A stretch of 64,000 nucleotides of DNA. Source: a virus. The stretch's first letter is position 1. Each line of letters opens with the position of its first letter. Of this stretch, positions 40,655-54,951 are shown in pieces. The position numbers and the translations under genes are program-made. The notes under the pieces are model-generated. The model saw only the letters and a program-made list of their open reading frames with translations, searched no databases and was not told where the DNA came from. Location of the stretch: the IMG/VR virus record IMGVR_UViG_3300021375_001810, one strand, 5' to 3'.

Positions 40655-41788
40655 ATGCGTATTGAACAAGATATAAAACTTGACTACAAAGATGTTCTGA
40701 TTAGACCTAAACGATCCATACTAGGTAGTCGCAAGGAAGTAAACTTAGATCGTAAATTTACATATAGGAATTATAATCCACCATTTCCAGATAATTCCGC
40801 TGAATATCATTATAGTGGTATTCCAATTATTGCAAGTAACATGGATGGTGTCGGTACAATGGAAATGGCAGACACACTTGCACAACAAAACATCCTAACT
40901 TGTCTTGTTAAAACATATAGTGAGGACGAACTTGTAAATTACTTCAACGGTGACGTACTAGTTAATAACAACAGAGTAGAACGTACAGAGTATGTTGCTA
41001 TGAGTATTGGCATTACAGATAATGATTATAGTAAGTTCAAAGAAGTATACGAACAAGTTGGATATAAATTAAAGTATGTTTGCGTTGATGTAGCAAATGG
41101 CTACTCAGAAAGGTTTGCAACATTTGTAAGAGGGTTGCGTAATAATTATCCACATATTGTTATTATTGCAGGCAACGTAGTTACAGGAGAAATGACGGAG
41201 GAATTGATTCTTGCAGGAGCAGATATTGTTAAGGTTGGCATTGGTCCTGGTAGTGTTTGTACTACTCGGATACAAACTGGTGTGGGGTATCCGCAACTAT
41301 CGGCGGTTATTGAATGCGCCGATGCGGCACACGGTCTCGGTGGTCATATTATCGCTGACGGCGGATGTACTTGCCCTGGCGATGTTGCCAAGGCTTTTGC
41401 CGGAGGCGCTGACTTTGTTATGCTGGGAGGTATGTTAGCAGGACACGACGAAGGCGGTGGTGAAGTAATTGTAAAGCAATTTGAAACAAACGAAATTATT
41501 CAAACACAGAAAAAAATTGTACAAGAAAAATATGTACAGTTTTACGGAATGAGCTCAAATGCCGCAAACGAAAAACACTTTGGTGGATTAAAAGAATACC
41601 GTAGTAGCGAAGGACGAGAAGTATTGGTTCCATATCGCGGCAAGGTAAAGCACACAATACAAGACCTATTAGGCGGTGTAAGAAGCACTTGTACCTATGC
41701 AGGTGCAGTAGGACTTAAACAACTCAGTAAGTGTACTACATTTGTACGTTGTACACAACAGTTTAACGCGGTTTACGCAGGAAAGTAA
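40655..41788 (+). CDS. guaC: GMP reductase
   Basis: [41 protein letters not shown]. Confidence 0.95.
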
Positions 41789-41792
41789 TATC

Positions 41793-42830
41793 ATGGATTT
41801 AAGTATTTTATATAGCGGACAAGTTTATCTTTTCCTAATTGTATTTGTAATGATGATTGCAGGTATGATAAAAGAGAACGACTTGTTCAAAGACATCTTC
41901 TGTTTCTTTGAACAGAATTTAAAAAGTAAGAAAGCGGTAGTTGCTATTGTAAGTGCCCTAACAGGACTACTACCTATCAAAGGTCGTGTTACAGTTAGTG
42001 CTGGCATGTTAGACACACTTGCACCCGATAAAGGGTGTTGTGGCCGAGAAAAGTTTGGACCAATTGATTATGTAAGCACACACCACTACTACTTTTGGTC
42101 ACCACTAGAGAAAACAGTTATTCTGCCGATGGCGGCGTTCGGACTGTCTTATGGTGCATTTATGAGTATGATGTGGCCATTGCTTGCTGTAAGTATTGCT
42201 TTTATTCTCGGCTACTTGATATGGGGCGTTAAAGAAAGTGATGTTCAATTACAGGATTGCGGAACAGAAATTAAAGTAAGTCGTATCACACGTTATGTAT
42301 TTCCATACATTGCAGGCGTAGTTGCTATTGTAGCTGGCGTAGACTTTATGTGGTCATTTGGATTGCTTACATTATATTACATGTTTTGTACAGCAACGTT
42401 TGATATTAAGAAGTTACTAGGTTACGTTGACTGGAAACTTATAGGCTGGGTAGCTCTTATTATTGCTCTAGCTAACTTTGCTGTCTCTAACACAGAAGCA
42501 ATTAAAACAGGATTAGAAAGTACAGGATTGGACATTAATACCCCGCTTGGCTTTATTGGTCTTAGTGTGTTTAGTTTCTTAGGTGCATTTGCACTAGGAA
42601 GCAGTTCACGCTTTGGTGCCATCACAGTGTTGATGTCAAGTATATATGGATTGGAGTATCTTCCTTGGTTCTTTGCAGTAGACTTTGTAGGCTATCTAAT
42701 TAGCCCTATGCACAAGTGCGTAGCAATTGGTATGCTGTACTTTGGAACTAAGTTGAGATATTACATTACTATATTAGGCTTATGGGGTGGATTGGTAATC
42801 GCCACCGCTGGGTTGACATTACTGTTCTAA
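41793..42830 (+). CDS. multi-pass inner-membrane transporter (ion-transporter-superfamily-like)
   Basis: About 10 hydrophobic segments; GLLP..G and SPMHKC motifs. Confidence 0.65.
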   Translation: MDLSILYSGQVYLFLIVFVMMIAGMIKENDLFKDIFCFFEQNLKSKKAVVAIVSALTGLLPIKGRVTVSAGMLDTLAPDKGCCGREKFGPIDYVSTHHYYFWSPLEKTVILPMAAFGLSYGAFMSMMWPLLAVSIAFILGYLIWGVKESDVQLQDCGTEIKVSRITRYVFPYIAGVVAIVAGVDFMWSFGLLTLYYMFCTATFDIKKLLGYVDWKLIGWVALIIALANFAVSNTEAIKTGLESTGLDINTPLGFIGLSVFSFLGAFALGSSSRFGAITVLMSSIYGLEYLPWFFAVDFVGYLISPMHKCVAIGMLYFGTKLRYYITILGLWGGLVIATAGLTLLF

Positions 42831-42841
42831 GAGTGTACACT
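42813..42841 (+). promoter_or_regulatory. sigma70 promoter
   Basis: TTGACA-N17-TACACT. Confidence 0.6.
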
Positions 42842-42916
42842 TAATAGGATAGAGGTAAGCACTAGGTTGTGCTTACTATTTTAATAACTTTTTTATAATT
42901 TATTTAAGGAGATAAT

Positions 42917-43504
42917 ATGAAAAATTTAATAATCGCAGGAATACTTGCAATTTTTGCAACAACTACTGTTAGTGCAGATGATTTTGATTATACAGAAGTA
43001 AACACTTTCGTAACTAAAGACAATTGGACCTTTGGTGTAAGAGAGTATGCTGATAAAGATTACTCTCAGCGTATCTTAAGATATGACTTTGAAGGAAATC
43101 CATATCGTTTAGAGTATAGAAAAATTGATCGTGCAGGCGTAGGCGAAGATTGGATTCGCTTTCAAGTCAAGCAGATTAAAAATGGAGCGTTCTTTTTCAA
43201 CTCAAGATTTGAACATAGATCAAGAGAAGGTAGAGAAAACGTTATGCGTTATCGCCCACAGTTTGGTTTAGAAGCACAAGGACAGCCTAACTTATTGTTT
43301 GGTTCACCGTTCTTAATCTTTGAACCACATGTACAATATACGTATGAAGGTAGTAATTTAGATTACAGCCATTTACAAACGTTTATAGGTACAAAATACA
43401 AGTTTGGATCATTCTCAGTGTCGCCTTTTGTTGAAGTCGATTTTGACGATGATTTTAAGAAAGATACAGCATTCTTTGGGGTTGACTTTAAACTCAATCT
43501 ATAA
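42917..43504 (+). CDS. outer-membrane porin-like protein (KdgM-like)
   Basis: Signal peptide; Arg-rich amphipathic beta strands; C-terminal FKLNL. Confidence 0.65.
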   Translation: MKNLIIAGILAIFATTTVSADDFDYTEVNTFVTKDNWTFGVREYADKDYSQRILRYDFEGNPYRLEYRKIDRAGVGEDWIRFQVKQIKNGAFFFNSRFEHRSREGRENVMRYRPQFGLEAQGQPNLLFGSPFLIFEPHVQYTYEGSNLDYSHLQTFIGTKYKFGSFSVSPFVEVDFDDDFKKDTAFFGVDFKLNL

Positions 43505-45019: not shown

Positions 45020-45683
45020 ATGCCAAGATGAAATTATAAGCATCTTTGACAGTCGAGCAAAAGAAATAGAAGAACCAGGGTTATCACATTTTAATCAACC
45101 AGAGAATGGTTGGATTAATCGTGTGTGGGCAAATGATAGTGTTCGTAGAGCACATATTGATGTTGTAGATGCACGTGAGTCTAGAGGCTTATGGATGATG
45201 CATGTATGTTGTTTTCCAGTTCTTAACAATGATGCGCCAATATACGGCTTTGATGTTATTGCAGGCAAAAACAAAATGACTGGAGCCTTCCATGACTTTA
45301 GTCCTAGTTCTAATCCAGACCATCCTATGATTGATGGATACAGAGAAAGTGTTGAAGAATTTATTCCTAGCAAACAAAGACAACTACCTGAATGGGCAAC
45401 AAATATTTTTACAGATAAAATGCTTGCTGCAGGCAATGTTAAAACAGAGGAAGAAGCAGTTGCTATTATTGACATTGCTATTGCTAATCTTAATGCTTGG
45501 TTTGACGAAGTACCATTATCCGACGGTGACGGTAATTGCGAGATAGTTGCAGCAAGTCAGAACTATTACTGTCATAACCAGCAACAAAATCCACATACGC
45601 CTAACGTTATGAAAACACTTGGTCTTGCAGAAGAAGATGTAGATAAGTTCTGCACAGACATGCTGTTTCCTAAAATAGTATAA
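44991..45683 (+). CDS. ferredoxin-dependent bilin reductase (PcyA/PcyX-like)
   Basis: RRAH, MHVCCFP, PIYGFDVI, HDFSP, LPEWA.IF, QNYYC..QQQNPHT; overlaps heme oxygenase. Confidence 0.88.
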   Translation: MSVIWNRLIECQDEIISIFDSRAKEIEEPGLSHFNQPENGWINRVWANDSVRRAHIDVVDARESRGLWMMHVCCFPVLNNDAPIYGFDVIAGKNKMTGAFHDFSPSSNPDHPMIDGYRESVEEFIPSKQRQLPEWATNIFTDKMLAAGNVKTEEEAVAIIDIAIANLNAWFDEVPLSDGDGNCEIVAASQNYYCHNQQQNPHTPNVMKTLGLAEEDVDKFCTDMLFPKIV

Positions 45684-45713: not shown

Positions 45714-47312
45714 ATGCGTTACAGTGACTTTAAACTTATAGAATCAAAAAAATTAGACGAGTCGGCTAATGCCGGACTAGAAGCTCAACATGCAATACAT
45801 GATATTGATGCTATTAGCAATGCTGTTGCTACTATGGACCCAACAGTTAAGTCTAACGTAGTAAGTAATTTAACAAGTCTTGCTCAAAAGGTCAGAGACT
45901 TTGTTACTAAGAATATTAAGAAAACTCCAGAACCGCAAACAGAAGCATTAGGTAGTGAAGACCAAGAAGCAGAATCTGCATTACAAAGATTAAAAGCCGA
46001 TATTGCTACTATTGAAGCAAGTGATATTGATGAAAACATAAAAGCATCTTTCTTAGCAAGTTTAAACGAAACATTAGACAAACTTACTAAAGCATCTGAA
46101 AACATAAAAACATCAAGAGACTCAGCACGTACTGAGCGTGACGAAGCAATTAACTTTGTTAAAGACGTTACAGGTGTATTAGTTACACTAGGTAACAAAG
46201 TACAAGGATATACAGCAGACTTAGACACAAGTGATATGACAGCAAGAGATAGATCTTCATACAAGAAAATGTCTATTAACGCAGATAAGTTTACTAAAAC
46301 TCTAAAGCAGGCACTGTTTGGAAAAATACTTGATATGCAGGAAGAAAGTGATGTTAAGGCTGAAGAGATTAAAGAGTTTTTACAAGCCTGTGTTGATGGT
46401 AAAGTAATTAACATGCTAAGACTTATTTCTGTAGACAGAGGTAATGTTAAAGATTTTGTAAACCCAAACTATCAAAAAGTATTTGATGTATTTGTAAAAG
46501 AAAACATCTTTAGTTATGCGCCTGGCACAACATCAGGTGCTATTGGTCCAGGCGAAATGGCATTGTCAATGATGGGTAACCCTGCAGAAAAGGGCAAGAA
46601 GGGCGATCTAAAGATTGGCGATGAAGAAGTTGAAATTAAAGCAAGTGCAAAGACCGGTGGGCGTTTCAATAGTAAGGCTATTGCTAAAGCAACTACAGGT
46701 TGGCAAACATGGTCAAACAAAATTAACGAAATTATGCAATCAGCACCAAAGGGTGCAACTATTCCAGTAATGCAAAAAGATGGAACATTCCAAAAAATTG
46801 ATGCACAAAGTTACGATGGTAACCAATACAATGTTATTAAAGGCAAGGCCAAAAAAGGTAGCAAGTATAACTGGAACAAGAAAGGCTTTGATGCACTAAA
46901 CAACGAAGTGTTAGAACCGTATGCAAATAAAAAACAAACTGCTGACTTGTTTATTTCAACAATTAAAGCTCTTGTACAAAACTATGAGAAACTAAGTCAA
47001 GAACAAGCAGGTAATTCACATCATAAACCATTTAAGCCAGCAGAACTAATTATTGATGCAATTAATAATGATGGTACTGTTGACATGAAGAAGATGAATG
47101 TTGCATACTCTAAAATTGCATATGCAAGTTATCACTTAGCAGACGGCATTACAACTGTTATGTTACTTAGAACAGATACATTAGACTACACTATCTTTAA
47201 AGATGCCGACGATTTAGTTGGACAAATGAATAACGATAGGGTTATTACTGGTGGCGGCTTCAATTGGAATGACGACCAGCAAACACCTACCCCTGGCTAC
47301 ACAGCCGCATAA
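45714..47312 (+). CDS. late protein with coiled coil and PD-(D/E)xK-like nuclease motif
   Basis: TATAAATA at 45679; MRYSDFKLIE N-terminus; GPGE...GDL...VEIK. Confidence 0.65.
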   Translation: MRYSDFKLIESKKLDESANAGLEAQHAIHDIDAISNAVATMDPTVKSNVVSNLTSLAQKVRDFVTKNIKKTPEPQTEALGSEDQEAESALQRLKADIATIEASDIDENIKASFLASLNETLDKLTKASENIKTSRDSARTERDEAINFVKDVTGVLVTLGNKVQGYTADLDTSDMTARDRSSYKKMSINADKFTKTLKQALFGKILDMQEESDVKAEEIKEFLQACVDGKVINMLRLISVDRGNVKDFVNPNYQKVFDVFVKENIFSYAPGTTSGAIGPGEMALSMMGNPAEKGKKGDLKIGDEEVEIKASAKTGGRFNSKAIAKATTGWQTWSNKINEIMQSAPKGATIPVMQKDGTFQKIDAQSYDGNQYNVIKGKAKKGSKYNWNKKGFDALNNEVLEPYANKKQTADLFISTIKALVQNYEKLSQEQAGNSHHKPFKPAELIIDAINNDGTVDMKKMNVAYSKIAYASYHLADGITTVMLLRTDTLDYTIFKDADDLVGQMNNDRVITGGGFNWNDDQQTPTPGYTAA

Positions 47313-47313
47313 C

Positions 47314-47403
47314 TGTCAAAATATTAACACTTGCATCTGTCAAATTTTTGCAAAGGTGTTACTTATTTACACATAGTTAATATCACCACTCCCTAGATAA
47401 ATA
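47314..47403 (+). promoter_or_regulatory. operator-like imperfect palindromes plus late promoter of the csg operon
   Basis: TGTC-N8-AACA (47314), TGTC-N8-GCAA (47338), TAAATA (47398). Confidence 0.45.
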
Positions 47404-47461
47404 CAACGAGAAGGATATATTATAGAATAAGAGTGTGAGGGCTCTAACTTCGGAGATTATT

Positions 47462-47953
47462 ATGACAAAATATGGTTTAGGGGCGATCCTTGTGTTACTA
47501 ACTTTTACTAATGCAGGGGCAACAGAGATTCTATGGGGTTTTAAGAATCCTGCTTTCCATTATGGTAACGGTTATTCAACCCATGTACTAAGTGTAGAGC
47601 AACTACAATATAATCGTAAAAAAGAGATTGCTGATTTTCAAAGATCAGAAGCACTAAGGATTGAAAGAGAACTTGAGAATACAACACTCAACAAGTTCTT
47701 AAAAAACTTAGAGTCAAGAATTTACGCACAGATATCAAAACAGATGGTAGACAGTATGTTTAGCTCATGTGATGATGCTGCAGCGGCCGCTGGAACTTGT
47801 ACACAAGCAACAACAGGTACAGCAACAATAGAAGGTTCTACAATTACGTGGATCAGAGATCCACTAACAGGATCTATTACCCTTCAAATATTAAATGAAG
47901 ACGGTACGTATACGGAAATAACAATTCCTGGATCAGGGGAGTTTGGATTTTAA
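47462..47953 (+). CDS. csgF: curli assembly protein CsgF-like
   Basis: Signal peptide then WGFKNPAF..GN......L..EQ.Q, matching the CsgF N-terminus; adjacent to csgG. Confidence 0.82.
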   Translation: MTKYGLGAILVLLTFTNAGATEILWGFKNPAFHYGNGYSTHVLSVEQLQYNRKKEIADFQRSEALRIERELENTTLNKFLKNLESRIYAQISKQMVDSMFSSCDDAAAAAGTCTQATTGTATIEGSTITWIRDPLTGSITLQILNEDGTYTEITIPGSGEFGF

Positions 47954-48892
47954 ATGATACGTTCTCTTTTAATTATTGCTATGACATTGTTAGCAACTGG
48001 GTGTGCCATGACCCCCTCCATGGTAGATTATTCAAAAGAGTCCAGTTGGAAGCCAACTGTACAGACAGCTCCTTTAGTAAATGAACTAAGAGATGTCCCT
48101 GAATTAAACGGCCCAGTAATAACAATAGCAGTTTATAACTTTTTAGACAAAACAGGTCAAAGAAAACCAGCAAGTAATATTGCTAATCTTTCTTCGGCAG
48201 TTTCTCAAGGCAGTGAAGTATGGGTAATAAAGGCATTACAAGAGGCAGGTAACGGCACGTGGTTTCAAGTTGTAGAGCGTGTAGGCCTAGACAATTTAGT
48301 TAAAGAGCGTCAACTGATTCGTTCCACAAGGGAACAGTATGAACGCACAAAAGAGAAAGGACCAACCCCTTTAAAACCTATGCTATTTGCAGGTTTACTT
48401 TTAGAGGGCGGCATTGTAGGTTATGATAGCAATGTTGCAGCAGGGGGTGTAGGAGCCAGATATTTAGGCATTGGAGCACAAACTGAATATCGAATAGACA
48501 CAGTAACCGTGGTGATGAGAATTGTATCAGTAAGTACCGGCAAGGTTTTATTATCTGTCGCTACCGAAAAGGTCATCGCATCGTCACGATCCGGAGCGGA
48601 CGTATTTAAGTTTTTAGATATGGGTACAAAAGCTGTCGAAGCGGAGAGTGGATACTCTGTAAATGAACCAGTCAATTATGCCGTGAGAGCAGCCATTGAG
48701 GCAGGCATAATTGAAATAATAAATCAAGGCGAAAAGGAAGGGCTTTGGAAGTTCAAGGAACAACGGGTAACAGGAACTGAAGCAGAAGTAATAGAGAACA
48801 CTAATGAAGGGGTCTCTATTTATTGTGAAACAGAAGACAAATGTTACACCTCTGAGGAACTGGACAAAAAAGCACAATCTTTAGACCGATAA
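47954..48892 (+). CDS. csgG: curli secretion channel lipoprotein CsgG
   Basis: Lipobox ATGC; AVYNFLDKTGQRK, SSAVSQG, WFQVVER.GLDNLVKERQLIR, EGGIVGYDSN, NEPV. Confidence 0.93.
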   Translation: MIRSLLIIAMTLLATGCAMTPSMVDYSKESSWKPTVQTAPLVNELRDVPELNGPVITIAVYNFLDKTGQRKPASNIANLSSAVSQGSEVWVIKALQEAGNGTWFQVVERVGLDNLVKERQLIRSTREQYERTKEKGPTPLKPMLFAGLLLEGGIVGYDSNVAAGGVGARYLGIGAQTEYRIDTVTVVMRIVSVSTGKVLLSVATEKVIASSRSGADVFKFLDMGTKAVEAESGYSVNEPVNYAVRAAIEAGIIEIINQGEKEGLWKFKEQRVTGTEAEVIENTNEGVSIYCETEDKCYTSEELDKKAQSLDR

Positions 48893-48898
48893 AGAGGG

Positions 48899-49615
48899 AT
48901 GATTATGAAAAAGATATATACAGGACTCACAGTTCTATTATTATCTAGTTTTGTAAACTTTGCGTCCGCTAATGATATCTATATCGAGCAAGTAGGTGAT
49001 ACTTTAGATTTAGATATTGTTCAGGACGGTACAGGAAATAAAATTGGTGATGCAGTTACAGGCGTAGACCTGGACGGTGCATCCATGACATTTAGTATAT
49101 CTCAAGTTGGAAATACCAACATCGTTTCAGCACTTATCAAAGGTGCATCGTACACTGGTACGTGGGACGTAAATGGTAGTGGTAACGATATCGACTTCAA
49201 ATGTTCTAGTACATCTACAGGTAACTGTGAAGATGTAACAGCAACAATTGACATCGATGGTGACAACACTAACTTAGATTTATATATAGGTGAAAATGGT
49301 GATGCTGATGATACTAATGTTACGTTAGACATTGACGGAAATGGAAACATTCTGAATATGGCTTTAGACGGAACAGACCTGGCGCTAAACTACACTATTG
49401 ACAATAGTGCTAACAGTGGCGGAAGTTCAACACTAGCAAACACCTTTACGATTAATGTTGATGATTCAGGCTTAACTGGACACAATCAAACTATTAGTCT
49501 AATTGGTGGTGGTAATACAGTAGACATCACACAAAGTGGTACAGCTCAAGATCAAACAATAAGTCTTGACTTGCAAACTAGTGGTAGTGATATCGACATT
49601 ACACAGAGCGACTAA
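48899..49615 (+). CDS. secreted curlin-like beta-solenoid protein
   Basis: Signal peptide; about 22-aa repeats with Q/D-x-G-x-x-N. Confidence 0.7.
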   Translation: MIMKKIYTGLTVLLLSSFVNFASANDIYIEQVGDTLDLDIVQDGTGNKIGDAVTGVDLDGASMTFSISQVGNTNIVSALIKGASYTGTWDVNGSGNDIDFKCSSTSTGNCEDVTATIDIDGDNTNLDLYIGENGDADDTNVTLDIDGNGNILNMALDGTDLALNYTIDNSANSGGSSTLANTFTINVDDSGLTGHNQTISLIGGGNTVDITQSGTAQDQTISLDLQTSGSDIDITQSD

Positions 49616-49617
49616 AG

Positions 49618-50742
49618 ATGCAGTTTGCTAGGTATATCCTCGCTGCACTACTTTGGTTACCAATTACAGCATATGCAAATATTGGACAAGTAGCTGATCA
49701 AAAGGGTAATGGTGCGATTGAAAGAGGTAGAGATTTAGTTGGTAGTGGTGTTGGTACTGAAGTACAAAGTATGGATGCTGCTGTTACTACCAACGGAACT
49801 ATGCGAATCGACTTTATTGACGATACTCGAGTAGATATCACACAACATAGTAAACTTATTATTGACGAATTTGTGTTTGATCCAGCGAATGATATCGGAT
49901 CACTAAGTCTAAAAGCGTCATTAGGAACAGTAAGGTACGCATCTGGACAAATTGCAAAGAAGTATAAGCAAAATGTTAAGATTCGTACGCCAAGTGCAAC
50001 AATCGGTGTACGTGGTACTGATTTCGTAATGGTTGTGGACGAAGTTGGCGGAAGTTTAATTACGCTTCTACCAAGTTGTGACTCTGCTGGAAACTGTTAT
50101 ACTGGAGAGATAACAGTGGAAACAGACGCAGGAATGGTTATTATGAATCAAGCATTCCAAGCAACGGCAACACAGACTTCTTCACAGCCTCCGACGCCGC
50201 CCAGACTGTTAGACTTACCAGAAGATATGATTGATACTCTTTTAATTGTAAGAAAGAAAACACCATGGGTTGAAGACGAGGAAGAATGGAAAAAGGCAAA
50301 GAAACAAACAGCAGATATTTTAGGTATTGATTATTTAGAGTTTGATGGATTAGATGTTGAAGTATTTCAAGACCAAGAAGAAATATGGCACACTGAACTT
50401 GACGAAACAGACTTTATGTTAGGCGACTTATTAATAGATATTTTAGAACAACTTAATATTCAATTAGCAGAACTATTTAAAGATGAATTTGAAAAACAAA
50501 AAACAGACTTTAGCGGAGTTAAGTTAGGGTTTGATGCAACAACAGGAATAAGAATTACAGACGTAGATCCATCATATCTATTTGAAAGATATGACAATAT
50601 AGGAACTAACAATGTATACCTAAAGTTGCGTAAAGGAAGCGGAGGATATACTATCAATTTACAACAGGGCGATTTCGAATTAATAGATTATAGAATCGGA
50701 ACTGGTCCTAATAGCATTGACATATATCAAAATAGCCAATGA
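49618..50742 (+). CDS. secreted FecR-domain protein
   Basis: Signal peptide; IDF.DDT.V.I, L..G.VRY, IRTPSATIGVRGTDF motifs. Confidence 0.88.
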   Translation: MQFARYILAALLWLPITAYANIGQVADQKGNGAIERGRDLVGSGVGTEVQSMDAAVTTNGTMRIDFIDDTRVDITQHSKLIIDEFVFDPANDIGSLSLKASLGTVRYASGQIAKKYKQNVKIRTPSATIGVRGTDFVMVVDEVGGSLITLLPSCDSAGNCYTGEITVETDAGMVIMNQAFQATATQTSSQPPTPPRLLDLPEDMIDTLLIVRKKTPWVEDEEEWKKAKKQTADILGIDYLEFDGLDVEVFQDQEEIWHTELDETDFMLGDLLIDILEQLNIQLAELFKDEFEKQKTDFSGVKLGFDATTGIRITDVDPSYLFERYDNIGTNNVYLKLRKGSGGYTINLQQGDFELIDYRIGTGPNSIDIYQNSQ

Positions 50743-51920
50743 AGATAACAGGAACACATTTAGGAATATTAATATTAGTAATGTACTTTGCGGCGCAGAC
50801 TGTTGACGCTAACGAGATTTACATCAACCAGGCTGGTGATAACATTGACATGACTATTGTTCAAGATGGTGAAAATAATGTTATTAGTTCACTTACTGGT
50901 AACGCCACTAAAGCCACAATCTCCGGTAATAACACAAGCACAACGTTTACACAAACAGGCGATGACAATGATATAGGCGTGTATATGAGTGCTGGCAATG
51001 GACAACAGACAGTTACACAAACAGGCAATACTAACTATGCTATTGTAGATTGCCACGGTAATAACTGTTCAGCAACCATTATACAAAATGGTAATAATAA
51101 TGCGGCAAATTTAGAGTTTGGTGACGGCGGTGATTACGATAACACTGGTACAATTACACAAGACGGTGACTACAATACGGCTGGTACAGAAATCAATGGC
51201 GACGACAACACTGTTGTAATGGATCAGGATGGTGACTACAATAGTATTGGAGGAATTACCAGCGCACCAATTACTGGTGATAACAATGTACTATCAATGA
51301 TACAAGATGGCGACTATATGACTTTTGAAGGACATCTTGTAGGTAGTAATAATAGTTTAACATCATTTCAAGGCGGCGGAGCCAACAGTAGTTTTATTCG
51401 TGTTAGTACAGTTGGAAGCAATAACACAGGTGATCTACGTCAAGGTAAGAAGATGGACGGATCAGTTGACGGCAATGATAGTGGTAACCATGAACAATAC
51501 ATAACAGTAGTTGGCGATGGTAATACTGTTGATACGTCACAGGTAAACAGTAACGGTGCAAGTTCAGATCATCATATGGCACATATTATAACAGGTGATA
51601 GTAACACACTAAGTCACTTGCAATATGCAGATAGTAAAAAACAAGGCTTCATCGAAATAACAGGCGACAACAATAATGTCGAACTTGAACAAAGAAATAG
51701 TGCAACTCATTTTGCTGACATAGTATTAACTGGAGACGGACATTCTGTATACGGTGAGCAACGTGGGTATGGATCGCATAATATAACAGTAGATCTAACT
51801 AACTCAGGCGGAGCATACAATATGTCAACTACACAAAATTCATCAACTGCACAAACTTACACACTAACCGGGAGTTGTGCAAATGCTAACGGATGTGGTA
51901 TTATAATTACCCAAAACTAA
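50739..51920 (+). CDS. curlin-repeat (CsgA/B-like) protein
   Basis: Signal peptide; repeats QDGENN, QTGDDN, QTGNTN, QNGNNN, QDGDYN (x2). Confidence 0.8.
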   Translation: MKITGTHLGILILVMYFAAQTVDANEIYINQAGDNIDMTIVQDGENNVISSLTGNATKATISGNNTSTTFTQTGDDNDIGVYMSAGNGQQTVTQTGNTNYAIVDCHGNNCSATIIQNGNNNAANLEFGDGGDYDNTGTITQDGDYNTAGTEINGDDNTVVMDQDGDYNSIGGITSAPITGDNNVLSMIQDGDYMTFEGHLVGSNNSLTSFQGGGANSSFIRVSTVGSNNTGDLRQGKKMDGSVDGNDSGNHEQYITVVGDGNTVDTSQVNSNGASSDHHMAHIITGDSNTLSHLQYADSKKQGFIEITGDNNNVELEQRNSATHFADIVLTGDGHSVYGEQRGYGSHNITVDLTNSGGAYNMSTTQNSSTAQTYTLTGSCANANGCGIIITQN

Positions 51921-51968
51921 ATAAATACTACTGACAGCAGAAGGCAGACTGCTAGAAAGTAGGGCGTA

Positions 51969-52451
51969 TTGATAGATCCATTCACCGCCGTAGCCGCGGC
52001 AACCACAGCGTTTAATACTGTAAAAAAATTCGTACACGCTGGTCAAGAATTTGAAAATTGTATGGGCCAAATGGGCAAGTGGTACACTAGTGTATCTGAC
52101 TTCCGTAAAGGTCAGCAGATGCAAAAGAATCCTCCAATATTTAGAAAACTATTAGCCTCAGGCTCAGTTGAAGAAGAAGCACTCAATCTCCTTATCCACG
52201 AAAAGAAAATTATGGAGATGGAAAAAGAACTTCAACAAATGCTAAACATACGTTTTGGCTTTGGAACTTGGGACGAGCTAAAAGAAATGCAACGTAAGAT
52301 ACGTGCTAAACGTGAACGTGAAGTATACAAACAAGCAGAAGCAAAGCAAGCATTAATAAACGGTGTTGCTATTACTTTATTAATAGGAGCATTAGTTAGT
52401 ATGCTTGGAGGATTGTTTTACTTTATATTAAAGGCCAAAGGAATGATTTAA
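51969..52451 (+). CDS. hypothetical protein with C-terminal TM
   Basis: Late promoter 51918/51922; TTG start. Confidence 0.7.
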   Translation: MIDPFTAVAAATTAFNTVKKFVHAGQEFENCMGQMGKWYTSVSDFRKGQQMQKNPPIFRKLLASGSVEEEALNLLIHEKKIMEMEKELQQMLNIRFGFGTWDELKEMQRKIRAKREREVYKQAEAKQALINGVAITLLIGALVSMLGGLFYFILKAKGMI

Positions 52452-52452
52452 A

Positions 52453-52674
52453 TTGAAATATGTCTACAAGAATTTAGTATATGATAATAGGGATACCAAA
52501 GGATTATTATATAGAGATGGTAAACTTTTGTTTATGGGAAATACTTGGAGTGGTATATTACAATTTTTAGCATACAGCAACAACGCACCTGAAGTACGAG
52601 AAATGTTTAAAGCACAACTTGAACAGCGCGAACAAATAAAATTTAAACAGCATCAAAGAGATATAGAAAAATGA
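52453..52674 (+). CDS. hypothetical protein
   Basis: 73-aa ORF in operon. Confidence 0.55.
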   Translation: MKYVYKNLVYDNRDTKGLLYRDGKLLFMGNTWSGILQFLAYSNNAPEVREMFKAQLEQREQIKFKQHQRDIEK

Positions 52675-52889
52675 TACATGCCTTTATGTTAATTGTGTTG
52701 ATAGCAGAAGTTCAACAACCATCGCCTATGTATTTTAGGAGTATAGATGTGTGTCAATACTACGCTAAACGTATACCTCGACAGTATGGTAACTATGGAT
52801 CAAAGTATCTTGTGCCTAAAGAACACAGAATTACAGCTTATTGTAAGCCTGTAAAGGTTCAAGACGGACCTTACATATACGATCATTAA
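52671..52889 (+). CDS. small hypothetical protein (two Cys)
   Basis: ATGA-coupled; hydrophobic N-terminus. Confidence 0.6.
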   Translation: MIHAFMLIVLIAEVQQPSPMYFRSIDVCQYYAKRIPRQYGNYGSKYLVPKEHRITAYCKPVKVQDGPYIYDH

Positions 52890-52899
52890 TAAATACTGT

Positions 52900-54951
52900 A
52901 TGACGAAGTATATCACACACTGGTCAGTAGCATTTATTACTGCCTTTATAATGATAATGTTACACTACGGTGATAGTACTGTAGTGCAAACAGCTCGGCT
53001 CAAGCAATTTGATTTACTTCAACAAACTGACGAGCCCCAACTCTCCCAAGATATTGTAGTAGTCACTATCGACGAACCAGCTATTGAAAAGTACGGTCAA
53101 TGGCCTTGGAGGCGTGATCAGATTGCAGATATAATCTGGAAGCTGCGCGAGGCAGGTGCTGGTATTATTGTAATACCTATTATGTTTTCTGAACCTGATA
53201 GATTAGGTGGAGATAATATTTTATCCGAAGCACTTGTAGATAACGGAGTAGTAATTGCACAAACAGGAACTACCTCTGTTAATAAGAATCCTGTTCCTAG
53301 AGGCGTAGCCAAAATAGGAGATCCTTTACCATACATGTTTGAATGGCCGGGGATGTTAGGACCAATTCCATTGCTAGGTGAAGCGGCAGACGGTGTAGGT
53401 GTTTTAAACACAGCACCAGAAATAGACGGTGTAGTAAGACGTGTTCCGCTCATCATGCGTATCGGTGAAGATACGTATCCTGCTTTAGCAGTGGAAGTAA
53501 TTAGGACAGCGACAGGAAATCCTAGTTATCAAGTAAAAGCGAATCAAGGCGGTATTGAAGCTGTACGTGTTCCGGGTTACCCGATTATCAAAACCGATCC
53601 TAATGCACAAATATGGTTACGTTGGAATAAACAGTTTGAAGAAATTAGTTTAGTAGACGAAGATCAATTTTGGGCTTTAGAAGGTAAGACAGTAATCCTT
53701 GGAATAACCGCAGAAGGAATTGGGGGACTTATTGCAAGTCCAACCGGACCGCAATATAATTACATACCAGCGGCAGTAACCTTACAAACAGTAATGGACG
53801 GAGATCAAATACAACGTCCATTCTGGGCACTCTTAGCAGAAATGATCACAACAGGAATCTTAGGCATAGCCCTTGTGCTAGTTGGACGTTTTGCACCTTA
53901 TTGGTTAGTTGGTACAAAGATAGTTGCATTTAGTGGAGCGTTAGTGTATGGTGCATACTATGCATGGACAAACTACTTGTATCTACTTGACATAACTATG
54001 CCGCTGGCTACTGTAATACTTGTAGGCTTACATTCTGTGTTTAATAGATTTGTAAGTGAATACCTACAAAAGCAAGAAATTAAAAAGCAATTTGCAGGAT
54101 ATGCATCACCTACTATTGTACGTATGTTACAGGAAAATCCTGCACTGATCAAAGACGGTATGAAGAAAGAAGTTAGTATATGTTTTAGTGACCTTAGAGG
54201 TTTTACTCCTTTAGGTGAAAGTTTTGGCGATGACGTTAAAGGCCTAACAAAAATAATGAATGGTTACATGGATGCAATTACACAGCCAGTACTAGACGCC
54301 GACGGTATGATTATTAAGTATATTGGTGATGCTAGTATGCATGTACACAATGCTCCAATTGATGATCCTGATCATCCTAAGAGTGCTGTACAATGTGGAC
54401 TAGATATGTTAAAAGCAGTGGAGAAGTTTAATGAAACATTACAACGAGATAACCGTCCGCCAGTGGGTATGGGTGCTGGCATTAATACTGGTTTGGGGTA
54501 CCTTGGTGAAATGGGTAGCACAAGGAGACATTCGTATGACGTTCTTGGCGACTCAGTATCAACAGCAGCAAGGATTGAATCAAAGTGTAAGGAATACGGG
54601 TGTACCTTACTAGTAGGAGACGCTACATACCAACGTACTAAGTCGGACTTCTTTTACTTAAAAATAGATGACTTAGCAGTAAAAGGAAAAACTGTCGGTA
54701 TAACAATATGGACAGTGTTAGACAATAGACGTCCGGCCTGGCGTGTAGCACAACGTAAACACGAGGATATGCACGAAGCATATAAAGCTCAAAAGTTTGA
54801 CAAAGCAATAGAGTTATGTAATACACTACATAATCATTTTGATGGCAAGATGTCTGACTATTATGATATGTGGATAGAACGTTGCAAATTCCAAAAAACT
54901 CAAGACCTACCTAAAGATTGGAATGGAGTATTCATTGCCACAACAAAATGA
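52900..54951 (+). CDS. CHASE2-domain class III adenylate/guanylate cyclase
   Basis: IDE......GQWPWRR, DGVVRR (CHASE2), TMs, FSDLRGFT, KYIGDA, GINTG, YDVLGDSVSTAARIE, VKGK. Confidence 0.95.
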   Translation: MTKYITHWSVAFITAFIMIMLHYGDSTVVQTARLKQFDLLQQTDEPQLSQDIVVVTIDEPAIEKYGQWPWRRDQIADIIWKLREAGAGIIVIPIMFSEPDRLGGDNILSEALVDNGVVIAQTGTTSVNKNPVPRGVAKIGDPLPYMFEWPGMLGPIPLLGEAADGVGVLNTAPEIDGVVRRVPLIMRIGEDTYPALAVEVIRTATGNPSYQVKANQGGIEAVRVPGYPIIKTDPNAQIWLRWNKQFEEISLVDEDQFWALEGKTVILGITAEGIGGLIASPTGPQYNYIPAAVTLQTVMDGDQIQRPFWALLAEMITTGILGIALVLVGRFAPYWLVGTKIVAFSGALVYGAYYAWTNYLYLLDITMPLATVILVGLHSVFNRFVSEYLQKQEIKKQFAGYASPTIVRMLQENPALIKDGMKKEVSICFSDLRGFTPLGESFGDDVKGLTKIMNGYMDAITQPVLDADGMIIKYIGDASMHVHNAPIDDPDHPKSAVQCGLDMLKAVEKFNETLQRDNRPPVGMGAGINTGLGYLGEMGSTRRHSYDVLGDSVSTAARIESKCKEYGCTLLVGDATYQRTKSDFFYLKIDDLAVKGKTVGITIWTVLDNRRPAWRVAQRKHEDMHEAYKAQKFDKAIELCNTLHNHFDGKMSDYYDMWIERCKFQKTQDLPKDWNGVFIATTK

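Follow-up and report, generated by a model that had tools for sequence, protein, structure and literature searches.

A probable viral curli secretion module with candidate FecR and CHASE2 sensor genes in a marine T4-like phage

Background

Genes of curli (type VIII) secretion have been described in marine phages. Two of them, csgF and csgG, were reported by Zaragoza-Solas et al. (2020), who also suspected the presence of subunits (PMC7029224). Buchholz et al. (2022) discussed a role as a lysis pore and stated that csgA and csgB are lacking (PMC9004378), and Wittmers et al. (2022) described the order CsgF-CsgG-CsgA/B-FecR-CsgA/B-adenylate cyclase in podo- and myo-pelagiphages, with CsgE absent and an alphaproteobacterial origin (PMC9599517). 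The cassette of marine T4-like phages is thus not new: it was described in 2022 for phages of SAR11 and OM43. Here we analyse a stretch of 64,000 nucleotides (nt) from the IMG/VR virus record IMGVR_UViG_3300021375_001810, below called the window, whose positions 47,314 to 54,951 contain csgF, csgG, the genes of two repeat proteins and of a FecR-domain protein, and a CHASE2 cyclase gene. This locus very probably belongs to the viral type VIII secretion system (T8SS) modules carried by marine T4-like relatives of Melnitz and HTVC008M. What appears to be new is that its FecR and CHASE2 genes form a bacterial sensor pair, which would have been joined to curli genes only by phages. Neither the CHASE2 domain nor FecR and CHASE2 as an existing bacterial pair is mentioned in the three papers cited above. 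The first-pass annotation of this DNA held that phage csg genes had been reported mainly without recognised curlin subunits; this is out of date, since the cassette with its curlins, FecR and cyclase has been published (PMC9599517).

Two bacterial loci resemble the regulatory part of the cassette. The Burkholderia 'BiofilmReg' operon (COG4254), which is linked to biofilm formation, consists of a response regulator, a LysM/FecR protein and a CHASE2 kinase, the signal-peptide FecR protein being encoded directly upstream of the CHASE2 sensor (PMC5192318). In the clr-cyaD1-smc02177(FecR)-smc02178 locus of Sinorhizobium meliloti, a CHASE2 receptor adenylate cyclase adjoins a FecR-domain extracytoplasmic protein, as in the phage, and the CRP-type reader Clr is encoded next door (PMC5498481). 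The same species provides the precedent invoked in the first-pass annotation, which is indeed in the literature: a protein signal from outside the cell reaches CHASE2 cyclases by way of NsrA, an outer-membrane protein (PMC13001267).

Composition of the locus

Protein families were assigned by Pfam profile searches over the ten open reading frames (ORFs) between 45.7 and 54.95 kb, all of them co-oriented on the + strand, and PHROG matches were added. The csgF gene (47462..47953, alternative start 47435) has GGAG before its ATG and encodes a protein with a signal peptide and the conserved N-terminal peptide FKNPAF..GNG. It matches Pfam CsgF (2.9e-10; 40.9 bits against a cut-off of 25.8, with 123 of 132 profile positions covered) and phrog_35372 (2.7e-47). 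The product of csgG (47954..48892) is a predicted outer-membrane lipoprotein pore with the lipobox LLATG/C, as read from the translation, and matches Pfam CsgG (5.1e-50; 170 bits, cut-off 20.8). Curlin-like subunit 1, below curlin 1 (48899..49615, 238 amino acids (aa)), has a signal peptide, a beta-solenoid, two conserved cysteines and the C-terminus ..DIDITQSD. The FecR-domain protein (49618..50742, 374 aa) is predicted to be periplasmic, ends in ..SIDIYQNSQ and matches Pfam FecR (1.4e-7; 32.3 bits, cut-off 24) and phrog_37870 (1.5e-103). Curlin-repeat subunit 2, below curlin 2 (50739..51920, 393 aa), has a signal peptide, hypervariable C-terminal two thirds and the C-terminus ..GCGIIITQN, and matches Pfam Curlin_rpt (2.3e-14; 53.5 bits, cut-off 20.7). 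Three small ORFs follow (51969..52889; 160, 73 and 72 aa), the first with a C-terminal membrane helix and a match to phrog_32327. The last gene (52900..54951, 683 aa) encodes a CHASE2 receptor class III cyclase, predicted to be an adenylate cyclase, with matches to Pfam CHASE2 (3.2e-38, 132 bits) and Guanylate_cyc (4.6e-17, 62.6 bits) and to cyclases in PDB.

CsgF, CsgG, both curlins and FecR carry a Sec signal peptide or a lipobox (again from the translations); the cyclase belongs to the inner membrane. From csgF through the 393-aa gene, neighbouring genes leave gaps of 0-6 nt or share 4 nt, and the FecR stop codon overlaps the start of curlin 2. No terminator-like sites dividing the block were found between the genes on the + strand. 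Altogether csgF, csgG, curlin 1, FecR, curlin 2 and the cyclase gene form one co-oriented, tightly packed block behind late-type boxes. The Pfam matches bear out the gene content given in the first-pass annotation, and the distance of about 1 kb that it gave between the operon and the cyclase corresponds to a gap of 980 bp, filled by the three small ORFs. The order of genes that it implied has to be corrected, since FecR sits between the two repeat proteins.

Conservation among viruses

In blastn searches the region was found at 66-68% identity in four records of Methylophilales phage Melnitz and in Pelagibacter phage HTVC008M. Melnitz is cultured on OM43 strain H5P1, and HTVC008M on HTCC1062. 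The annotation of these phages lists contiguous genes of CsgF, CsgG, a curlin-associated protein, FecR, a second curlin protein and an adenylate/guanylate cyclase, the FecR gene of HTVC008M being annotated 'hypothetical', and the cassette adjoins tape-measure and baseplate genes. Proteins of the window cassette are 39-66% identical to those of Melnitz and 33-56% to those of HTVC008M. Gene set and order are the same as in the T8SS of pelagiphages, CsgE, CsgC and CsgD are absent from both, and in both the module lies between the replication and the tail/baseplate modules of a T4-like genome. The window differs in having three small ORFs inserted before the cyclase gene, and in lacking the histidine kinase that is encoded upstream of podophage modules.

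A scan of IMG/VR with the FecR protein yielded 71 loci, onto which the proteins of the window were mapped by tblastn. The order csgF-csgG-curlin 1-FecR-curlin 2, with FecR between the two curlin genes, was observed wherever the region is complete, and the block is kept in more than 70 viral loci. The cyclase gene is present in all 46 loci whose flanking DNA is long enough; each of the 27 loci that lack it ends less than 3.3 kb from FecR or starts inside FecR, and the two loci starting inside FecR are of the type with the cyclase upstream of csgF. This latter arrangement was seen in four loci. The distance between FecR and the cyclase is 0.7-4.3 kb across the viral loci and 2.2 kb, on the same strand, in the window. 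The cyclase thus travels with the csg/FecR block in related genomes, and the lack of co-occurrence that the first-pass annotation had envisaged as a counter-argument was not observed, because no locus with sufficient room is without the gene.

In the window and in loci L004, L005, L011 and L014 the trio of small ORFs follows curlin 2 and precedes the cyclase; in L009, L010, L064 and L073 it stands upstream of csgF. The trio accompanies the cassette in the nearest clade, and Melnitz and HTVC008M lack it.

In a search of a set of 5.8 billion proteins with CsgG, the best 120 matches were all phage-like metagenome proteins, and no bacterial context was seen among them. One of the CsgG proteins, P0008 (303 aa), is 100% identical to the window CsgG over the aligned 97%. 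The contig recorded for it has 339,019 bases and is thus roughly double the length of a 168-kb contig with the full-length protein; this may reflect a concatemer, a chimeric assembly or something else.

Seven phage-like contigs with the whole cassette (L074-L080) are binned in metagenome-assembled genomes (MAGs) as Pirellulales, Legionellales, Rhodobacteraceae, Pelagibacter, Flavobacteriaceae and Polynucleobacter. These labels look like binning artefacts, and inferring the host from them seems unsafe. They are uninformative in this respect because near-identical phage contigs were binned in at least six unrelated taxa.

Curlin-type subunits

The 238-aa protein scores 11.6 bits with Pfam Curlin_rpt, which is under the cut-off, and has no Pfam match at E <= 0.01. 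The profile is touched by 17 of its 21 orthologues from related loci (best E 1.2e-7), and the N-terminal 160 residues of the 393-aa protein are 30% identical to the 238-aa protein (E 3e-11). An AlphaFold2 model of the latter (21 orthologues) is a continuous beta-solenoid, with a predicted local distance difference test score (pLDDT) of 76 and a predicted template modelling score of 0.71. When this model was compared with known structures by VIA-align, beta-helices of the SufB/SufD type ranked first (Z 16-18), and CsgA of Pontibacter korlensis (8c50) was fourth, with Z 15.7, 190 residues, a root-mean-square deviation of 8.8 and 20% identity, a value above those of the other rows listed. Foldseek with the same model gave generic beta-helix matches only, and searches of PDB sequences with curlin 1 (as a profile) and curlin 2 gave nothing meaningful. 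Given the matches of the orthologues, the mutual identity and the solenoid fold, both repeat proteins are best read as curlin-type subunits. The first-pass annotation had named two curlin-repeat proteins: the second stands by its own score, and the first is supported by its orthologues and predicted fold.

No Pfam match to CsgE, CsgC or CsgD was found among the ten ORFs, and the earlier statement that no CsgE-like gene is visible holds, in agreement with PMC9599517. These three proteins are also absent from bacterial operons of the alpha type, and therefore the curli system here is of the alpha type and not of the E. coli type.

Locus L003 is 95-98% identical to the window over 40-60 kb, except for positions 41778-42959 and 51305-52888. 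The latter replacement covers the C-terminal two thirds of curlin 2 and the small ORFs; within curlin 2 the segment 51305-51882 is replaced and the last 39 nt (..GCGIIITQN) are retained, so that the window carries a different allele. The exchange resembles a cassette-type exchange inside a repeat protein. At the other swap point, about 1.2 kb of the window (41778-42959) have no match in L003. Further, curlin 2 still reaches 74-78% identity in loci with no more than 52-59% for FecR. Because of this mismatch and of the swap in L003, we read curlin 2 as being exchanged independently of its neighbours; it is a recombination hot spot. Such swapping suggests an exposed or selected product.

The first-pass annotation allowed for the repeat proteins being virion components. 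We judge this unlikely: both carry Sec signal peptides. The signal peptides, together with the swaps of curlin 2 between near-identical phages, lead us to read the curlins as exported proteins.

Another possibility is that the CsgG/CsgF pore is the functional part and that the repeat proteins form no fibres, the pore being a gated channel for lysis timing (Buchholz et al. 2022) or for solute import (Zaragoza-Solas et al. 2020; Wittmers et al. 2022). These are published hypotheses (PMC9004378, PMC7029224, PMC9599517); besides, no clumping was seen in infected OM43 cells (PMC9004378), and no CsgE gate is encoded. However, genes of two curlin-type beta-solenoid proteins with signal peptides are kept in every locus, and about 1.9 kb of subunit genes would not be maintained if only a pore were needed. 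CsgF, the fibre-nucleation factor in E. coli, is also conserved, and the exchange of curlin 2 between near-identical phages again suggests an exposed product under selection. We consider a pore without fibres very unlikely.

FecR and CHASE2 genes in bacteria

A profile built from viral FecR proteins, run against a set with a single genome for each prokaryote species, retrieved seven phage-like contigs in MAGs of unrelated taxa and six true distant homologues. All six of the latter have a CHASE2 protein encoded downstream on the same strand, for example FecR-OmpA-CHASE2/HD-GYP and 392aa-FecR-939aa-CHASE2/cyclase-response regulator/PglZ; the cyclase of the second example has the whole architecture of the phage protein, C-terminal extension included. 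Operons of this second kind, in L083 and L085, consist of a 392-401 aa protein (no family), FecR (227 aa), a 936-939 aa protein (no family), the CHASE2 cyclase and the response regulator/PglZ gene. The two large family-less proteins may be further partners of FecR and CHASE2.

In 401 genomes of Pseudomonadota we took the best 40 small FecR ORFs with 7 kb on each side. A CHASE2 gene occurs within this distance in 20 of the 40, and in eight of these it encodes a CHASE2 class III cyclase. If a genome has about 1-5 CHASE2 genes, we estimate that adjacency by chance would amount to about 1%. Not one of the 40 has a CsgG, CsgF or curlin gene within 7 kb. Together with the Burkholderia and S. meliloti loci of the literature, these observations show FecR and CHASE2 to be a recurrent bacterial gene pair. 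The Burkholderia operon differs from the phage cassette in its histidine kinase output, in having LysM in place of the phage-type C-terminal domain and in lacking secretion genes. The S. meliloti locus has no curli genes, and its reader Clr has no counterpart in the phage relatives.

We found csgF in eight of 401 alphaproteobacterial genomes, one of these being a phage-like contig of a Pelagibacter-labelled MAG. The other seven loci have a csgG-curlin neighbourhood with the order csgF-csgG-curlin as in the phage, also lack csgE, csgC and csgD, and encode detectably similar curlin-repeat proteins; the window CsgG is 43-46% identical to CsgG of alphaproteobacterial curli loci. Unlike the phage cassette, none of the seven has FecR, CHASE2 or a cyclase within 9 kb. 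Since csg genes are missing around the 40 FecR ORFs and FecR and CHASE2 are missing around these seven curli loci, the phage cassette appears to be a composite of two bacterial modules whose union is seen only in phages.

The phage FecR protein consists of a signal peptide, a strongly conserved FecR domain (residues about 20-195), an acidic/helical linker and a beta-rich C-terminal domain (about 300-374). With E. coli FecIRA it has in common only the periplasmic FecR domain (Pfam PF04773): it has a cleavable signal peptide instead of the cytoplasmic anti-sigma domain and the transmembrane (TM) helix. The signal peptide comprises the first 21 residues, ending AYA/N, and the Pfam FecR match begins at residue 56, which excludes an anti-sigma domain of about 85 aa; neither this domain nor the TM helix of the FecIRA type was found in the phage protein. 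Being a signal-peptide protein without an anti-sigma domain, and having a CHASE2 gene nearby, it has the features of the FecR gene in FecR-CHASE2 (COG4254-type) pairs. The phage protein has about 175 aa that are absent from the bacterial FecR proteins of 150-230 aa encoded beside CHASE2 genes. Its extreme C-terminus, like those of the curlin 1 and curlin 2 families, has the pattern hydrophobic-x-hydrophobic-x-Gln, which is kept across lineages 42-59% identical. The idea that the C-terminal domain is itself a curlin repeat was dropped, as profile comparison gave no homology beyond the signal peptide.

Pseudomonadota also contain a second class of close FecR matches, which cover query residues 15-195 and are situated towards the N-termini of giant frames with 1000-9900 aa (L126, L128, G257, G143, G107, G250 and others). 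A CHAT-domain gene adjoins in the two loci examined.

Adenylate cyclase

The predicted topology of the cyclase is one TM helix, a periplasmic CHASE2 domain (residues about 25-318), three TM helices, the cyclase domain (about 420-605) and a conserved C-terminal extension. Functional residues were assigned from an alignment of 25 sequences and from PDB matches to solved cyclases. The metal-binding residues D431 (FSD) and D477 (IGD) are invariant in the 25 sequences and align to those of solved cyclases; K473 and R558 are also invariant. D547 (SYDVLG), which aligns with the Asp of the mammalian C2 motif YDIWG and is replaced by Ser in another phage subtype, is the adenine-specifying partner, and we therefore take the protein for an adenylate cyclase. 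In the window and most myophage copies, Ser554 (VSTAAR) stands where the transition-state Asn would be expected; five phage loci and two bacterial homologues keep the Asn, in VNLAAR. In mammalian cyclase, Asn-to-Ser changes strongly lower the catalytic constant. The conservation of Ser554 points to an enzyme under selection.

Possible mechanism

The overall explanation that we favour, and regard as somewhat probable, combines a curli module with sensing by FecR and CHASE2. Late in infection, CsgG and CsgF would form an outer-membrane pore, through which the two curlin-like beta-solenoid subunits would be exported; on the outside of the infected cell they would polymerise. A periplasmic sensor pair of bacterial origin, made up of the FecR-domain protein and the CHASE2 cyclase, would have been joined to the curli genes by phages and not by bacteria. 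FecR in the periplasm could couple curli export or the state of the envelope to CHASE2, changing the synthesis of cyclic AMP (cAMP) in the cytoplasm. The phage-specific C-terminal domain of FecR, with its curlin-like terminal strand motif, may make the link to the curlins. The coupling of FecR to CHASE2 is plausible, although it falls a little short of probable. Roles in lysis timing or contact sensing are speculation, and the purpose may be aggregation ('sibling capture'), superinfection exclusion, import or lysis control.

Several observations weigh against this scheme. Firstly, seen from the CHASE2 side, FecR lies within 1.5 kb in only three of the 30 top CHASE2 loci. Secondly, hhalign aligns FecR and curlin 1 in their signal peptides only; given this lack of wider homology, the C-terminal motif that they have in common, a short one, could be convergent. 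The AlphaFold2 model of the FecR protein (12 sequences) has pLDDT 41 and is unusable. Thirdly, the activity of the cyclase may be low or altered, because Ser554 stands in place of the transition-state Asn. Fourthly, a reader of the signal is hard to find: no domain binding cyclic nucleotide monophosphates (cNMP) and no GAF domain were detected in Melnitz, HTVC008M or four related IMG/VR records (G001-G004), in a search that did detect the cyclase in all five records tested (Melnitz, HTVC008M, G002-G004). Among 41 genomes of the family of the Pelagibacter-labelled MAG, which may not be the family of the host, two have a cNMP-binding domain and two a class III cyclase; the small number of readers is therefore a caution and not a refutation. 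The S. meliloti precedent cuts both ways: the relay from NsrA speaks for the scheme, whereas the FecR gene beside cyaD1 is a cAMP/Clr target that is dispensable for signal perception (PMC5498481). Finally, FecR is present in all podophage modules and the cyclase only 'frequently' (PMC9599517), so that FecR may serve the curli machinery and not the cyclase.

This last point leads to the main rival explanation, that FecR is an accessory factor of curli, either a periplasmic adaptor, chaperone or gate replacing the missing CsgE/CsgC or an anchor or nucleator of the fibre, and that the cyclase is a separately acting passenger. Consistent with it, the FecR gene lies between the curlin genes and is translationally coupled to them, the protein shares its terminal strand motif with both curlins, and its extra domain of about 175 aa has no equivalent in the bacterial proteins beside CHASE2. 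Moreover, no CsgE is present, and the cyclase is displaceable: four loci have it upstream of csgF, and elsewhere its distance reaches 4.3 kb. On the other hand, the nearest bacterial relatives of FecR adjoin CHASE2 and never csg (0 of 40), the bacterial alpha-type curli loci have the same gene order without FecR (0 of 7), and loci of the myophage type always contain the cyclase where room exists. We consider a purely accessory FecR with a passenger cyclase somewhat unlikely; accessory and sensor roles are not exclusive.

Alternatively, the cAMP produced by the cyclase could feed back on the csg operon via a regulator of the CRP/Clr type at palindromes upstream of csgF. The sequence TGTCAAAATATTAACA at 47316-47331 is one mismatch away from the Clr box TGTT-N8-AACA, and a clean palindrome TGTAAA-N4-TTTACA occurs about 100 nt before csgF in seven nearest-clade loci (about 87-106 nt in L006, L008, L009, L010, L011 and L064; about 42 nt in L075). 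Its counterpart in the window is the degenerate GTGTTACTTATTTACAC at about 47357-47373. However, TGT-N10-ACA was found upstream of csgF in nine of 58 cases, compared with 15% of random windows from the same loci, that is, without enrichment. The complete relatives have no cNMP-binding domain, and such domains are as rare in the family of the Pelagibacter-labelled MAG as stated above. Besides, T4-type late promoters seldom use activators of the CRP/Clr type, as is established for T4. Such feedback is highly improbable.

A more elaborate form of the favoured scheme is that the FecR/CHASE2 sensor, welded to curli, is a self-contained circuit from the envelope to the cytoplasm. The C-terminal domain of FecR and its terminal strand would report fibre export or contact, and the nucleotide would act in hosts largely without cyclases and cNMP receptors, its reader being an unrecognised phage or host protein, or its role not being signalling at all. 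We regard this as unlikely.

The module is abundant in ocean viromes: it is present at all 65 GOV2.0 stations and is expressed in metatranscriptomes (PMC9599517). Infected cells of the SAR11 and OM43 types would gain a surface structure that is otherwise beyond them. Recognition of FecR and CHASE2 as a ready-made bacterial pair would turn vague 'regulatory genes nearby' into a testable wiring diagram. It also leaves a puzzle, since the receptor would make cAMP for which no reader is recognised in the phage or, it appears, in a large part of the host lineage. The locus could also inform the study of the CHASE2 domain in general, as the Pfam entry, quoted in 2016, lists its ligands as unknown (PMC5192318).

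Promoter-like boxes and neighbouring genes

The sequence ATAAATA is the core of the T4-type late promoter. It occurs 17 times in the window, compared with about 30 times in shuffled sequences, and is thus rarer than in the shuffles. The + strand has 14 of these boxes, and most are followed by a gene start at a distance of 5-94 nt. The box at 47397..47403 (+), which is a consensus match only, is 59 nt before the ATG of csgF and is kept before csgF in several related loci. Another box, at 51921 (+), precedes the 160-aa ORF. The box at 52889 (+) ends only 5 nt before the ATG of the cyclase gene, and for this reason the late promoter of its own that the first-pass annotation ascribed to the cyclase is doubtful, unless the mRNA is leaderless.

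Directly upstream of csgF lies a 532-aa ORF (45714-47312) with its own ATAAATA box at 45680. It has no match to a Pfam or PHROG family. Among the related loci it is present as a whole only in L003, and L080 contains a weak partial match.

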